Assembly (NCBI GenBank): GCA_044225175.1
Contig: JBGAJA010000001.1
Location: 422,711 to 486,710, forward strand
Source: Candidatus Omnitrophota bacterium
GTDB lineage: Bacteria > Omnitrophota > Gorgyraeia > Zapsychrales > Fredricksoniimonadaceae
Direction: 5' to 3'
Length of the DNA: 64,000 bases
Positions within the stretch are counted from its first letter, which is position 1. Each line of letters begins with the position of its first letter. Shown here piece after piece: positions 43,701 to 47,259 of the stretch. A model generated the notes under the pieces. The model was not told the DNA's origin. It made no database searches and worked only from the letters and a program-made list of their open reading frames with translations. The translations under genes and the position numbers were made by a program.

Positions 43701-46700
43701 TCCAAGTTTAGGACGTATGACTAAAAAGGTCAATTGGCTGGGAAGTACCAGTCAGTCTAATCCTGTGACTAAATATGCATACGATGTTTACGGTAATTTG
43801 CTTACAACTACTGATCCCAATGGGAATGTGACAAGCGTTATATATGACAATGAATTTCACATGTTTCCAGTTCAAACAACTAATGTTTTAGGGCAAACTG
43901 CGTCAAAGACCTATTATGGGGTTGCTGGTCAAGCTCAGGATGGGGGGTTGTTTGGTCAAGTCAAATCGAATGTGGATGCCAACAATCAAACTGTCTTAAC
44001 CAGATACGATACCTTTGGCCGTCCTATCAAAGTCATTTCCTCTTTAGATACTGAAGCTTTGCCAACCTCTCAGAAAATTTATCAAGTATTTCCAACATAT
44101 ACATCTATCACAAGCAAGGTCCGAGTTGATAGTGGTTTAACTCAAACCATTGATTCAGTGGAATACTACGATGGTCTAGGAAGATTGATTGAAGCCAAGA
44201 CTCTAGGACCTCATCCAGGTCAATACATTGTCTCTGGGTTGACAGAGTATGATTACCGTGGTTTGCCTATCAAGAAATACCTGCCAAGATTTACTTCCAA
44301 TGATTTAAATACGCTCGATGTGATTGATGGTAATGTGCCTTTCTCACAGGTGACTTATGATTCGATCGGGCGAGTAGTCAAGAAAACCGATCCTGATGGA
44401 AGTTATTCAACGCTGCAGTATGACCATTGGACAACCACATCCATTAATGAGAATGGTCACATGCAAAAGTCTTATGTGGATGCATCTGGGCGTTTAATCA
44501 AGAAGGAAGAATACCTGGGAGCAGACGGAAGGGCTTCAGATTATCCTACAAGTCCTTACACGCTTTATGCGACTACGAACTACACCTATGATCCTTTAGG
44601 TCGATTAATCTCAGTCAAAGATGCTCAAAATAATGTTACAACGATTCAATATGATCGTTTAGGTCGTAAGATTAGTATGAGTGATTTGGATATGGGCAAT
44701 TGGCAATACAGTTATGATGCTAATAACAATATGATTGAGCAAACAGATGCTAAGGGAAAGAAGATTCGCTTTACATATGATGCTTTAAATCGCCTGATTA
44801 ATAAAGCAGAGGCTATTGCAAATCCAACATTTAATGTGAACTATGCTTATGACCAGGTCGGTCAAAGCAACTCAGTTGGACGCTTAGGGAAGGTTGATTA
44901 TAACAATGGAACAGCAGGTTTTGTATATGATCAACTAGGAAGAGAAGTGTCTTCTTCTAAGAATATTGATGGAAAGCTTTATCGAGTCAATCGAGAATAT
45001 GACCTATTAAATCGTATTAAGGTACTAACTTATCCAAGTGGACAGCAGATCAAGTATTTATATAACCAAGCAGGACAGGTCATATCTATTGGCTCCGTTC
45101 AACCTCAAGATGAAATGGCAGCATTAAAGCCCGCTACAGAAGATCCAAATCAAATATTGTTAGCCTTAAATGATGTCTTAGGTGTTCGCAATGCCTATGG
45201 GGATACCACAATGCAATTGCCAGGGCCATATGTGAATAATGTCAGCTACAACGCTTTAGGCCAGATTACTCAGATTCAATATGCCAATGGAGTATCAACA
45301 GCATATACCTACAATCCTCAAAACCAAAGACTGACTCGTATTTATACCTCAAATAGCGACGGGGAGAGGCTCCAAGACTTAAGTTATATCTATGATGCTT
45401 TAGGTCAAATCACATCGATCACCGATGCGGTTCATACCGCGACCCAGCAATACAAATATGATGCTTTAAATCGTCTCATTTATGCCCAAGGCAGTTATGG
45501 AATCAAGAACTATGCCTATGATTCCGTCGGTAATATCACACAAAAAGATGGTCTAACGTATGCCTATGGAGAGCCTAATAGTAGAACAGATGGAGGCAAA
45601 GCAGGTCCTCATGCAGTGACATCATTAAGCGATGGAACAACCTTTAAATATGACCTTAATGGCAACATGGTGACAATCAAAAAGGGGGTAGATACAACCA
45701 CGTATCTCTATGATGTACAGAATCGATTGATTGAGATCGATACCCAGAAAACGAATGGTCCATTACTAGTTGCAGCAAAATATTATTATGATGGAGATGG
45801 AGGAAGAACAAAGAAGGTGGTGAATCGCAGAGACACCGCGGTCTACAACATCACAGGAGTTCTATATCGCAATCTCGATGGAACACCTTTTCCAGCTACC
45901 AATCAAAAACCTGAGACTGTTACAACTCGATATATAGGAAACTTAGTTGAAGATGAAGATCATGGAACAACCGGAGTACATCGAAGAAGCAATTTTATTT
46001 ACATGGGCAATACAAGAGTAGCCGCTCAAGCTAATGATAATGTCTTGTACTACCACAATGATTATCTAGGCGGCGCCAATGTATTAAGTGATCAAGCAGG
46101 GTTAAAAAGAGACCTGACTGAATATGATCCGTTTGGATTGGTTGTGCGTCATGAGCGTTATGGCAAAGACTTTGCAACCATATGGTCAGGGTTTACTAGT
46201 AAGAACTTAGATGATGAATCTGGTCTTATGTTCTATGGGGCTAGGTATTACAATCCCAAGTTAGGAAGATTCATTACGGCAGATACAATTGTCCAAGCTC
46301 CAGACAACCCGCAGACGCTAAACAGATACACCTATTGCAATAATAATCCAGTTAATAACATTGATCCATCTGGGCATAGTTGGTTTAAGAAGTTTTGGCG
46401 AAGCTTTGCAGGAGCTGCAATTGGAGCTTTTATAATATTTGCGGGACCAGCTGCTTGGGGATTAACGCTGATGCAGGCTGGTATTTTAGGGGGTGCAATT
46501 GGAGGAGCAGTTTCAGGAGGGCTTGATGGAGGTTTCCGTGGCGCTCTTATCGGAGGTCTTATGGGTGGAGTGATGGGTGGTGTTGGTGGATGGGCTCGTA
46601 TAGAAGCTTTATGCGGAAACAGTTTTGGTAATTATGTTTTAGGTGGAATGGCTGTAGGAGGAATTGGATCTACAGCTAAAACAGGAAATTGGGCTAGCCT

Positions 46701-47259
46701 TGCTGGTAGTTTAACAGGTTCATATCTTGGAAAAATGGCATATAATCAAATGAGTCCAAATTCTGAGCAGAGTTATCATTTTTCTGATAGACAAAATATT
46801 GAGAATAAAGCTGTTTTAAATCCTCAAGCAAATCCGGCACCAATTATTGGCGTTAATGCCAGAAATCTTCCTACGCTTGAGAAATCACCTAGTTGGCTTG
46901 ATGTTTCTCTAAAAAATGCGGGTTCAGTTATTGGATATGATTTAAAAAAAGAGTCGGACTACCTATCAAATGAAAAATTGATGAAATGGGGATCAGCGCG
47001 AATAATAGGAAAATCTCTTGGAGCCTATTCTTTAATTAGTGATGCCATAGAATTAGGTAATTCACCCAGCGCAGTAAATATAGGAAATTTTACTTCATCT
47101 TCTGCTGGTCTACTTTTTGGTACGCCAGGGGTGGCTTACAGCTTAGGGTACACTTTAGGGAATACTACAATAAGTACTGTTAACACTGTTTTTGTTAATA
47201 TATATGGCCAGGATGCTGTCGATAATTACATTCTAGATGTTCGTAATAAATTCCGCTGA
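40792..47259 (+). CDS. Giant secreted SpvB/TcB-like + FG-GAP beta-propeller + YD/RHS-repeat protein with RHS core and variable C-terminal domain (Tc-toxin BC-fusion-like / teneurin-like polymorphic toxin), paralog 1
   Basis: Signal peptide; SpvB signature (AYPIQVPPGRGGIQPNLALTYSSS...GIGWTMDLGSIQLSTKKGPPKYDG); >=9 D-x-N-G-D-G blades; many YD motifs; core ...GARYYNPKLGRFITADTIV...YTYCNNNPVNNIDPSGHSWFKK; ATG 40792 preferred over in-frame TTG 40786. Confidence 0.85.
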   Translation: MRNFLTVKLVFISVFFVIPLATAADNPTTQPKSELVHPRAQIEAETVPVSSDPKQIQDVISQNKQNLEDKDTDKSSARATEKKTEVVSPDKNNQRDGGNSPSGGPGGSVPTNVQNSTVNVEPFSGSANMAYPIQVPPGRGGIQPNLALTYSSSFRSLGLAGIGWTMDLGSIQLSTKKGPPKYDGTDIVTLIENGSSQDLVYDSAVGFYRTEVEGAFAKIQKVADHWEVTDKKGVKYYFGNTDDSRSFDPANQSHIFRWALNRVEDLNGDYMTMSYLKDQGQLYPQSLAYTGNSQKSLNTYAQILFNYEDTGLPFHSYMEGFLVKTSKRISSVNSFVNGINQVSYNFIYQTSTITGHSRLSQISECRPQNVCLPPVIFNWQDIEGKIVGSTATGAGGAQRWSPADWSWRSYEIADVNGDGFHDFISFQTDGVYVWKSTGTGFAAVEHWSLVNWDPSARRHGIADINGDGKADLISFQTDGLYVWISTGSGLLGEQRWSPADWSWRSYEIADVNGDGFHDFISFQTDGVYVWKSTGTGFAGVEHWSLVNWDPSARRHGITDINGDGKADLISFQTDGLYVWISTGSGLLGEQRWSSADWSWRSYEIADMNGDGLSDFISFQTDGVYVWKSTGKGFDGVERWSLVNWDPNTREHGVADINGDGKFDLLSFQSDGLYVWLSTGVSLLGEKRWSMENWNRKHSIADMNGDGKGDFISLQTDGLYVWENNKGISDLLKSTNNSIGVVNSIDYEYSTQYENFLLPFSIPVVKTTSMTISNPIGAPSTYTTNYHYAGGKWNAANREFQGFQAVKVIDTQGNYSQTTYLQDHWLKGRPLEQSTYDAQGVIQNKVVNQWQTQDITTHTATDQISKFIYLGRVDNYLYDGVTTAKRTTQTSSYNENPQYGNVTQTFNLGEVDFVTGNDVGNDTVITTYEYTSNASNWLIGLPKYTSIQDSNGNTLGQLWLYYDGSDDNNAIPSLGRMTKKVNWLGSTSQSNPVTKYAYDVYGNLLTTTDPNGNVTSVIYDNEFHMFPVQTTNVLGQTASKTYYGVAGQAQDGGLFGQVKSNVDANNQTVLTRYDTFGRPIKVISSLDTEALPTSQKIYQVFPTYTSITSKVRVDSGLTQTIDSVEYYDGLGRLIEAKTLGPHPGQYIVSGLTEYDYRGLPIKKYLPRFTSNDLNTLDVIDGNVPFSQVTYDSIGRVVKKTDPDGSYSTLQYDHWTTTSINENGHMQKSYVDASGRLIKKEEYLGADGRASDYPTSPYTLYATTNYTYDPLGRLISVKDAQNNVTTIQYDRLGRKISMSDLDMGNWQYSYDANNNMIEQTDAKGKKIRFTYDALNRLINKAEAIANPTFNVNYAYDQVGQSNSVGRLGKVDYNNGTAGFVYDQLGREVSSSKNIDGKLYRVNREYDLLNRIKVLTYPSGQQIKYLYNQAGQVISIGSVQPQDEMAALKPATEDPNQILLALNDVLGVRNAYGDTTMQLPGPYVNNVSYNALGQITQIQYANGVSTAYTYNPQNQRLTRIYTSNSDGERLQDLSYIYDALGQITSITDAVHTATQQYKYDALNRLIYAQGSYGIKNYAYDSVGNITQKDGLTYAYGEPNSRTDGGKAGPHAVTSLSDGTTFKYDLNGNMVTIKKGVDTTTYLYDVQNRLIEIDTQKTNGPLLVAAKYYYDGDGGRTKKVVNRRDTAVYNITGVLYRNLDGTPFPATNQKPETVTTRYIGNLVEDEDHGTTGVHRRSNFIYMGNTRVAAQANDNVLYYHNDYLGGANVLSDQAGLKRDLTEYDPFGLVVRHERYGKDFATIWSGFTSKNLDDESGLMFYGARYYNPKLGRFITADTIVQAPDNPQTLNRYTYCNNNPVNNIDPSGHSWFKKFWRSFAGAAIGAFIIFAGPAAWGLTLMQAGILGGAIGGAVSGGLDGGFRGALIGGLMGGVMGGVGGWARIEALCGNSFGNYVLGGMAVGGIGSTAKTGNWASLAGSLTGSYLGKMAYNQMSPNSEQSYHFSDRQNIENKAVLNPQANPAPIIGVNARNLPTLEKSPSWLDVSLKNAGSVIGYDLKKESDYLSNEKLMKWGSARIIGKSLGAYSLISDAIELGNSPSAVNIGNFTSSSAGLLFGTPGVAYSLGYTLGNTTISTVNTVFVNIYGQDAVDNYILDVRNKFR
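41983..42846 (+). repeat. 3 x 288-bp near-identical in-frame tandem repeat inside paralog 1 (each unit = two beta-propeller blades), plus degenerate 4th unit to ~43000
   Basis: Unit starts at 41983, 42271, 42559 all begin CAGCGATGGTCACC(G/A)GCTGATTGG; protein unit RWSPADWSWRSYEIADVNGDGFHDFISFQTDGVYVWKSTGTGFA..DINGDGKADLISFQTDGLYVWISTGSGLLGEQ. Confidence 0.9.

Follow-up and report, generated by a model that had tools for sequence, protein, structure and literature searches.

Glycine-zipper module and orphan tail at the C-terminus of a TcB-TcC-fusion-type Rhs protein in an Omnitrophota tandem array

Introduction

The TcdB/TcaC-type polymorphic-toxin scaffold was catalogued by Zhang et al. 2012 (PMC3482391), and work on Rhs and Tc-like shells has since described the Arg/Asp/Asp protease triad and the position of its cut (PMC10684867, PMC9935623); in Tse5 of Pseudomonas aeruginosa, the last residue of the shell chain lies one position past DPTG (L1168|I1169; PMC10684867). 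For Tc cocoons, the experimentally derived requirements for the cargo are a size of 20-35 kDa and an isoelectric point (pI) of at least 8 (PMC6868009). Hydrophobic segments and glycine zippers are known from comparable proteins: in SGS1, a mosquito salivary protein acquired from Wolbachia-like bacteria, predicted transmembrane helices were seen packed inside the shell (PMC9935623), and in Agrobacterium Tde1, a glycine zipper permeabilises the membrane and is required for the entry of the effector into the target cell (PMC10240207). How cargo crosses the target membrane when an Rhs or Tc-like cocoon works without a TcA syringe or a type VI secretion system (T6SS) is not settled. Here, we analyse a 64,000-nucleotide stretch of a Candidatus Omnitrophota bacterium (assembly GCA_044225175.1, contig JBGAJA010000001.1, positions 422,711 to 486,710, forward strand; hereafter, the window, to whose first letter all positions refer) that carries a tandem array of Rhs paralogs, and we focus on the C-terminal region of the first of them, paralog 1 (P1), at 46363-47259.

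P1 is a TcB-TcC-fusion-type ("TcdB/TcaC-type") Rhs protein, and our proposal for its C-terminal region, to which we would give an even chance, is that it forms the cargo of a Sec-exported Rhs cocoon in which a glycine zipper inserts into a membrane and carries or anchors an orphan effector. An earlier note, written from the bare letters of the window, had drawn attention to the region as a variable payload with a zipper and a candidate novel toxin, and several of its claims are taken up below.

Results

The region of interest is bounded exactly: 46363 is the first base of D1860, the aspartate that opens DPSGHSWFKK, and 47257-47259 is the stop codon. P1 and the next two paralogs (P2 and P3) share ...NRYTYCNNNPVNNIDP(S/T)GHSWFKK, which the earlier note had read as the end of the Rhs core, with complete divergence beyond it. 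This pattern is borne out, far beyond chance, at the DNA level: in 60-nt bins just before ~46404, the identity is 0.73-1.00 between P1 and P2 and 0.73-0.77 between P1 and P3, and after that point it falls to background, 0.13-0.50 in every bin. The assignment as a core end is upheld as well, as the 275-aa stretch ending at the motif aligns, up to DPxG, with the C-terminal plug of solved shells (phmmer E-values 3.4e-12 for RhsA 7Q97, 3.4e-10 for Tse5 8CP6 chain B and 1.2e-6 for SGS1 8FJP), and also with those of TcdB2-TccC3 and YenC2 (4o9x and 4igl_B) and of mosquito SGS4. The plug itself (GRFITAD...NNIDPSGH; 46267-46377, plus strand, like all features of P1 below) places R1828, D1833 and D1860 on the Arg/Asp/Asp protease positions, and all three residues are kept in P1-P3. 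The polymorphism begins at the cleavage motif, and relatives with a like core end carry other C-termini. "Complete" divergence holds for the sequence only and not for the architecture, as all three paralogs continue with a Gly/Ala-rich hydrophobic segment of 110-150 aa and then a unique tail.

By alignment to Tse5, the autoproteolytic site of P1 is predicted at H1864|S1865 (46377-46378). Slightly upstream, P1 and P2 read YYNPKLGRF (46249-46260 and 53058-53069) where P3 (59657-59668) and most Rhs proteins have YYDPxxGRF, these coordinates being approximate; we considered the asparagine as a sign of an inactive protease and dropped the idea, as the corresponding Asp is not a catalytic position in the structure alignment.

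Cleavage at the predicted site would release from P1 a fragment of 293 aa, 30.4 kDa and pI 9.2, and from P2 and P3 fragments of 272 and 282 aa, the three together spanning 28.7-30.4 kDa and pI 8.5-9.2. All of them lie inside the Tc cargo window, and both their size and their charge fit an encapsulated cargo. The fragments start with the aromatic and basic SWFKKFW (46378-46398 in P1), present in P1-P3 and in the only related genome locus, an Omnitrophota metagenome-assembled genome (L001); related starts (KWSWKKFWH, SWFSKFWK, GWFKKLL) occur in the Rhs relatives P0001, P0002, P0015, P0032 and L005-L014. No usable match to the C-termini of P1-P3 was found in Pfam, NCBIfam or the PDB sequences. 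The GC content at third codon positions (GC3) is 0.20-0.22 in the C-terminal region of P1 (46393-47256), compared with 0.31 for the core of P1 and 0.34 for the nearby atp operon, and the lower value is compatible with a C-terminal cassette and a scaffold of different origin.

The first ~122 aa of the fragment (46378-46743) make up a hydrophobic and predicted all-helical glycine-zipper module, for which we propose a role in membrane insertion or translocation. Gly makes up 28%, Ala 15% and charged residues 6% of the first 120 aa past the motif, which contain 18 GxxxG repeats, compared with 8.6 +/- 2.2 in shuffles of the sequence. The core of the zipper, GILGGAIGGAVSGGLDGGFRGALIGGLMGGVMGGVGG (46480-46590), holds ten Gly in an exact i+4 register over 37 residues, a regularity that was reached by 0 of 5000 composition-preserving shuffles; the segment is conserved in P0001 and P0002. 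The Kyte-Doolittle profile of the module peaks at 1.75, 1.31 and 1.23, and AlphaFold2 (AF2), run on a 17-sequence alignment, models the module as five helices with a mean predicted local distance difference test (pLDDT) score of 60, which is indicative only. The P1 C-terminus as a whole has no Pfam or NCBIfam match at E-values up to 10, the glycine-zipper families Gly-zipper_Omp, Gly-zipper_YMGG and Gly-zipper_OmpA included, and no match among the PDB sequences; in the relatives, Gly-zipper_YMGG is matched only below threshold.

The glycine-zipper repeats noticed by the earlier note are thus real, but they do not set P1 apart: they are neither special to the variable payload of P1, the module being 41-55% identical over 110-150 aa in at least ten other Rhs C-termini (P0001 and L006-L014), nor peculiar to P1 within the array, P2 and P3 having analogous segments. 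The novelty of the C-terminus accordingly stands for the ~170-aa tail and falls for the module, and the note's view of the tail as lacking a recognisable motif or relative held in all sequence searches. Homology of the P1 C-terminus to a known non-toxin domain, which would have spoken against a toxin, was found in none of Pfam, NCBIfam and the PDB sequences.

The relatives of the module are informative for the division of labour within the C-terminus. The loci L006-L014 represent eight distinct metagenomic loci, L009 and L010 being duplicates; L005 also belongs to the family (tblastn, 54% over residues 1-123), and P0002 shows a weaker alignment, at 35%. When the whole 288-aa C-terminus was used in a word-indexed search, Gly-rich candidates swamped the results and a single match was returned. 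In every member, the module follows directly after DPxGH, and the family has a signature consisting of a [KS]W[SF]..KKFW start, a GG.L[DE]GG[WF][KR]GA zipper core, GGW and W[DA]S[FL]AG; a three-member alignment retains 51 invariant columns. Where enough upstream sequence was available (L008, L009 and L001 were checked), the relatives also have the FG-GAP/TcdB_midN/RHS scaffold. Complete C-termini of the family measure 277-310 aa, a narrow range that is consistent with a capacity constraint, and their tails, 161-176 aa each, differ from one another, such that at least seven unrelated tail families are found behind one module. A tail is shared only by P0001 and L007 (BLAST), with L005 and P0032 appearing to join them when judged by eye.

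The genes just downstream of family members are likewise mutually unrelated, and they look like immunity genes. One of them, a lipoprotein-like open reading frame (ORF) that follows the tail in L013 (region 112-1403, tail included), matches Pfam Imm-NTF2-2 (5.3e-6). As these immunity-like genes vary with the tail, we infer that the tail, and not the zipper, is the specific toxic part. Among looser Rhs relatives, a Gly-rich hydrophobic stretch is followed by a TNT NADase (P0053, residues 244-328, with a core end nearly identical to that of the window) or by a NucA/NucB DNase (P0049, residues 209-264). Both TNT and NucA/NucB are enzyme domains that act inside cells. Immunity that tracks the tail and enzymes placed behind such segments together suggest, therefore, that the zipper is a generic insertion or delivery module and the tail the specific effector.

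Some details of the relatives deserve recording. The tail of L013 has an FHTHP...S..D pattern that, by eye, resembles the Tox-JAB-2 signature; Zhang et al. 2012 (PMC3482391) list Tox-JAB-2 together with NTF2-type immunity. At L009/L010, the full-length Rhs gene and the immunity-like ORF behind it are followed, after some 1.35 kb, by a 216-aa ORF (6227-6874). Its product starts with MIDPTGHFFW and passes directly into a hydrophobic stretch rich in Gly and Ala, which gives it the appearance of an orphan C-terminal cassette with a hydrophobic module of its own. L001 has the GHSWFKKFW motif, a Gly-rich segment and yet another tail, whose H...NC pattern, as judged by eye, may resemble PPPDE-type peptidases. 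A 166-aa ORF there (11338-11838) overlaps the Rhs stop codon and has no Pfam match; it is possibly an immunity or accessory gene, unlike in the window, where the array comes without any.

The remaining 171 aa of P1 (46744-47256) form the orphan tail, the proposed effector part, consisting of a polar, Pro-rich linker of ~50 aa and then ~120 aa rich in small residues. The tail has no match in Pfam, NCBIfam or the PDB sequences and none in plasmids and phages (tblastn); an exhaustive phmmer search of 1.84 billion representatives, clustered at 50% identity, gave 0 matches, and pattern scans of genomes, metagenomes and viruses found no relative. It is not similar to any other tail of the module family.

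The shell that precedes this region is encoded, together with it, by a 2157-aa ORF starting from a TTG at 40786 and ending at 47259 (ORF list and translation), the ATG at 40792 being the likelier start. Pfam identifies SpvB (residues 124-288; 9.5e-23), FG-GAP_3 (2.2e-27), TcdB_toxin_midN (residues 699-829; 2.8e-16) and RHS_repeat in seven stretches (1.3e-48), and the combination of SpvB, FG-GAP, TcdB_toxin_midN and RHS_repeat is found in all complete paralogs; on P3, a TEN_YD-shell annotation was available precomputed. The N-terminus MRNFLTVKLVFISVFFVIPLATA (40792-40860) reads, by eye from the translation, as a Sec-type signal peptide with a probable cleavage near ATA|AD, and similar N-termini are found in P2-P4 and in the Omnitrophota homologue L001. 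Within the FG-GAP/beta-propeller region of P1, at ~41950-42950 (aa ~390-720), there is a near-perfect tandem duplication of WSPADWSWRSYEIADVNGDGFHDFISFQTDGVYVWKSTGTGF... in ~3.5 copies. The duplication is missing from P2 and P3, whose propeller regions differ also from each other, and the propeller is a second polymorphic region beside the C-terminus, possibly with a role in target recognition or gating.

The array consists of at least four tandem paralogs: P1, the complete P2 (47433-54005) and P3 (54155-60634), and a fourth, P4, that leaves the window. P4 opens near 60700 (region 60645-64000) with the same signal peptide and N-terminal region; because it runs off the end, the final 3.3 kb are empty in the ORF list, and Rfam and tRNA scans of this stretch gave nothing. 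The array follows immediately on the atp operon, amid housekeeping genes, and among the window's ORFs, the others scanned being of the housekeeping kind, no TcA, T6SS or immunity genes were found near it. In particular, no cognate immunity gene follows any paralog directly, the spacers of 173, 149 and ~70 bp being without a plausible ORF; the first of them, between P1 and P2 (47260-47432, 173 bp), holds no immunity-sized frame when ORFs of at least 20 aa are listed. Tc toxins directed at eukaryotes do not need an immunity gene.

When the two inter-paralog spacers at 47260-47432 and 54006-54154 are compared, repeated motifs are seen: AACTGGGACACATTGAAT occurs at 47291 and 47389, and at 54009 with two mismatches, and AATTCCGGTGCC at 47269 and 47335, and at 54092 with one mismatch, three matches being reached by 0 of 100 shuffles in either case. 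The motifs may mark promoters or the sites of a regulator, or be scars left by duplication; a sigma-54 promoter was considered and dropped, the spacing being off the consensus. Between atpC and P1, a 134-aa ORF (40291-40695) has a signal-peptide-like N-terminus and several Cys. It has no Pfam match, is found also on independent Logan contigs, and could be an accessory protein of the array.

As for the host, all named best matches of the window's translation initiation factor IF-2 are Candidatus Omnitrophica, at 54-73% identity, and for this reason, we rejected an origin from chlamydiae or amoeba symbionts, a possibility raised by the mention of amoebae in the earlier note. Positions 52970-60869, which run from the C-terminus of P2 over P3 into the start of P4, recur in an independent Logan assembly; for the C-terminus of P1, a second assembly covering it was looked for and not found, and the exact P1 product, looked up with three alternative starts, is not on record in the protein collection.

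Discussion

We propose that the aspartyl protease at the C-terminal end of the shell (R1828/D1833/D1860) would cut after H1864 and that the 293-aa, 30-kDa fragment of pI 9.2 would stay unfolded inside the shell. Once the cocoon opens, the first ~120 residues, SWFKKFW and the (GGxx)n zipper, could act as a helical module inserting in the target membrane, and the last ~170 residues would be the variable effector, carried across the membrane or anchored at it by the module; in P1, this effector would be an orphan of undefined activity. Cleavage, encapsulation, membrane insertion, translocation and toxicity are what we infer for the P1 cargo; the layout of the sequence, the homologous core end, the periodic and conserved module, its pairing with many tails and the lack of relatives of the P1 tail come directly from the sequences. 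The target is probably non-kin prey or host cells, a reading that comes from the lack of an immunity gene accompanying the array, and an array without such genes would fit weapons used against non-kin cells.

Several observations weigh against this proposal. The earlier note had suggested AlphaFold and Foldseek as a check on the C-terminus. The model of the module is only moderately confident and finds no match in a Foldseek search against the PDB, and the tail, which has no homologues, reaches a pLDDT of 29 in single-sequence AF2, an unusable model that lends no support to a folded active domain. The count of zero among the representatives is itself weakened by the clustering of the library at 50% identity, as representatives of a scaffold can mask other tails, and the relatives of the module were picked by their similarity to it, making their abundance a biased estimate. 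A TcA-like translocator, or any other opener of the cocoon, is absent from the window. Finally, toxicity could reside in the zipper alone, as it does in Tse5-CT (the C-terminal fragment of Tse5) and EsxX, and a Sec-exported protein with C-terminal hydrophobic helices might be kept in the inner membrane of its producer.

Of these two alternatives, the first is the more serious, and we regard it as possible though rather unlikely. The zipper would then be a membrane-depolarising pore or ionophore like Tse5-CT, EsxX/TelE, CdzC/D and the ionophores of contact-dependent inhibition (CDI) systems, and the tail would be accessory; it could serve as a size filler for the cocoon, or as an oligomerisation or receptor element. 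The exceptional length of the zipper and its hydrophobic, helical prediction agree with this, as does the precedent of Tse5, an Rhs protein with an encapsulated pore-forming C-terminus (PMC9637101, PMC10684867), and that of EsxX, a glycine-zipper depolariser (PMC12744356). That the tail is an ORFan for which no fold is predicted also speaks for this reading, and as Tc cocoons need a cargo of at least ~20 kDa (PMC6868009), a neutral filler and the uniform 277-310 aa of the family could both be explained. A shared pore toxin is, however, expected to have a shared, membrane-embedded immunity protein, whereas here the module is conserved yet the immunity-like ORFs all differ and include a soluble NTF2-type protein. 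Similarly, analogous segments precede bona fide enzymes, TNT and NucA/NucB, and no sequence similarity links the module to the glycine-zipper families of Pfam or to PDB chains.

The second alternative, which we consider improbable, turns the C-terminal helices into a stop-transfer anchor and the array into a set of variable periplasmic or surface proteins for adhesion or recognition, teneurin-like and never delivered. A signal peptide combined with C-terminal hydrophobic segments, their Kyte-Doolittle values reaching up to 1.75-2.06, speaks for this, and Sec does insert segments of Tse5-CT that have been given a signal sequence (PMC9637101). The second polymorphic region in the P1 propeller and the failure to find immunity, TcA and T6SS genes nearby in the window point in the same direction. 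On the other hand, the protease triad, lost in teneurins (PMC9935623), is intact in P1, and the sequence switches exactly at the cleavage motif, as is typical of polymorphic toxins. Immunity genes accompany relatives that carry the same module, the analogous Gly-rich segments precede toxin enzymes, and the predicted transmembrane helices of SGS1 were found inside the shell (PMC9935623).

We regard as very improbable a third alternative, in which the C-terminus of P1 would be a cassette in decay or a chimera, left over from recombination or created during assembly, and its tail would be non-functional. In favour of it, the tail is an ORFan, GC3 is low in the C-terminal region, the stretches of 100% identity between P1 and P2 could mislead assemblers, the N-terminal region of P1 contains the point at which the Logan contig L003 breaks off, and P1 is without a recorded exact product or a second assembly over its C-terminus. 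Against it, 298 codons follow one another in an open frame before the stop, the C-terminus (298 aa) and the tail (168 aa) have the lengths usual in intact members of the family, the module is well conserved and keeps its register, and an independent assembly reproduces the neighbouring junctions between the C-terminus of P2, P3 and P4.

Returning to a zipper that delivers the tail, a more far-reaching version can be formulated, which we find speculative and doubtful as a whole: WFKKFW and (GGxx)n would be an autonomous pre-toxin translocation module through which a TcA-less, Sec-exported cocoon pushes an unfolded effector of ~18 kDa across the membrane of its prey, the array of at least four cocoons lacking immunity genes would be a predation weapon of Omnitrophota against non-kin cells, and the P1 tail would represent an effector with a new fold and a new activity. 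A lifestyle as ultra-small predators or epibionts has been proposed for Omnitrophota (bioRxiv 10.1101/2023.11.21.568195). Whatever the fate of this version, a module that stands at the start of the released cargo and is swapped among unrelated tails is a testable candidate for a built-in translocation device, and it would give a handle on how these uncultured and supposedly predatory bacteria attack cells; the orphan tail would add one uncharacterised effector. If the zipper is simply a pore toxin, P1 just adds one more ordinary member to a class that is well known.

Among the described systems, the depolarising zipper toxins differ from P1 in their layout. In EsxX (PMC12744356), the CDI ionophores (PMC11630599) and Caulobacter CdzC/D (PMC5380434), the zipper is the terminal toxic domain and comes with a dedicated immunity protein, whereas in P1, it is internal, with ~170 aa following, no immunity gene beside it and no match to the glycine-zipper families of Pfam. 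Tse5 (PMC9637101, PMC10684867) shares with P1 the Rhs shell, the DPxG aspartyl protease and a hydrophobic C-terminal fragment. It is delivered by T6SS and VgrG, however, lacks a Sec signal and a TcB part, and has a cognate immunity protein, and Tse5-CT, at 16 kDa, is the whole toxin and shows no detectable homology to the P1 C-terminus.

For the mechanism in which the zipper carries the tail, the closest functional analogue is Tde1 (PMC10240207), which has consecutive GxxxG repeats N-terminal to its toxic part, as P1 has before its proposed effector. The likeness is one of description only: Tde1 is a small T6SS cargo effector and not an Rhs protein, its zipper is short, and its toxic domain is a known DNase. 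SGS1 (8FJP; PMC9935623) parallels P1 in its layout, having a Tc-like fused BC shell, the Arg/Asp/Asp site, predicted transmembrane helices and then a tail (Tox-SGS), yet past the cleavage site, the two have no sequence similarity. Only SGS1 has extra receptor domains, six transmembrane helices over ~300 aa and a furin site, and its function is host manipulation in saliva and not that of a bacterial weapon.

Also among the closest systems are the TcdB/TcaC-type Rhs proteins and the BC cocoon of the Tc toxins (TcdB2-TccC3, YenB-YenC2), which resemble P1 in their signal peptide, SpvB, integrin-like beta-propeller, TcdB middle and RHS parts, in a core end that aligns with TccC3 and YenC2, and in a hypervariable, basic C-terminus of ~30 kDa that begins at the protease site. 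In contrast, P1 unites B and C in a single chain, the 64-kb window holds no TcA gene, at least four paralogs stand in tandem directly downstream of the atp operon, and the cargo opens with a hydrophobic glycine-zipper module instead of being a soluble enzyme only. Omnitrophota are not among the phyla listed by Zhang et al. 2012 (PMC3482391), and a Gly-rich transmembrane pre-toxin module after the Rhs core appeared neither there nor in our keyword searches, which covered part of the literature. Overall, the system itself is a known one, a polymorphic Rhs toxin of the TcdB/TcaC type, in which the organisation of the cargo is a noteworthy variant and the payload an orphan.

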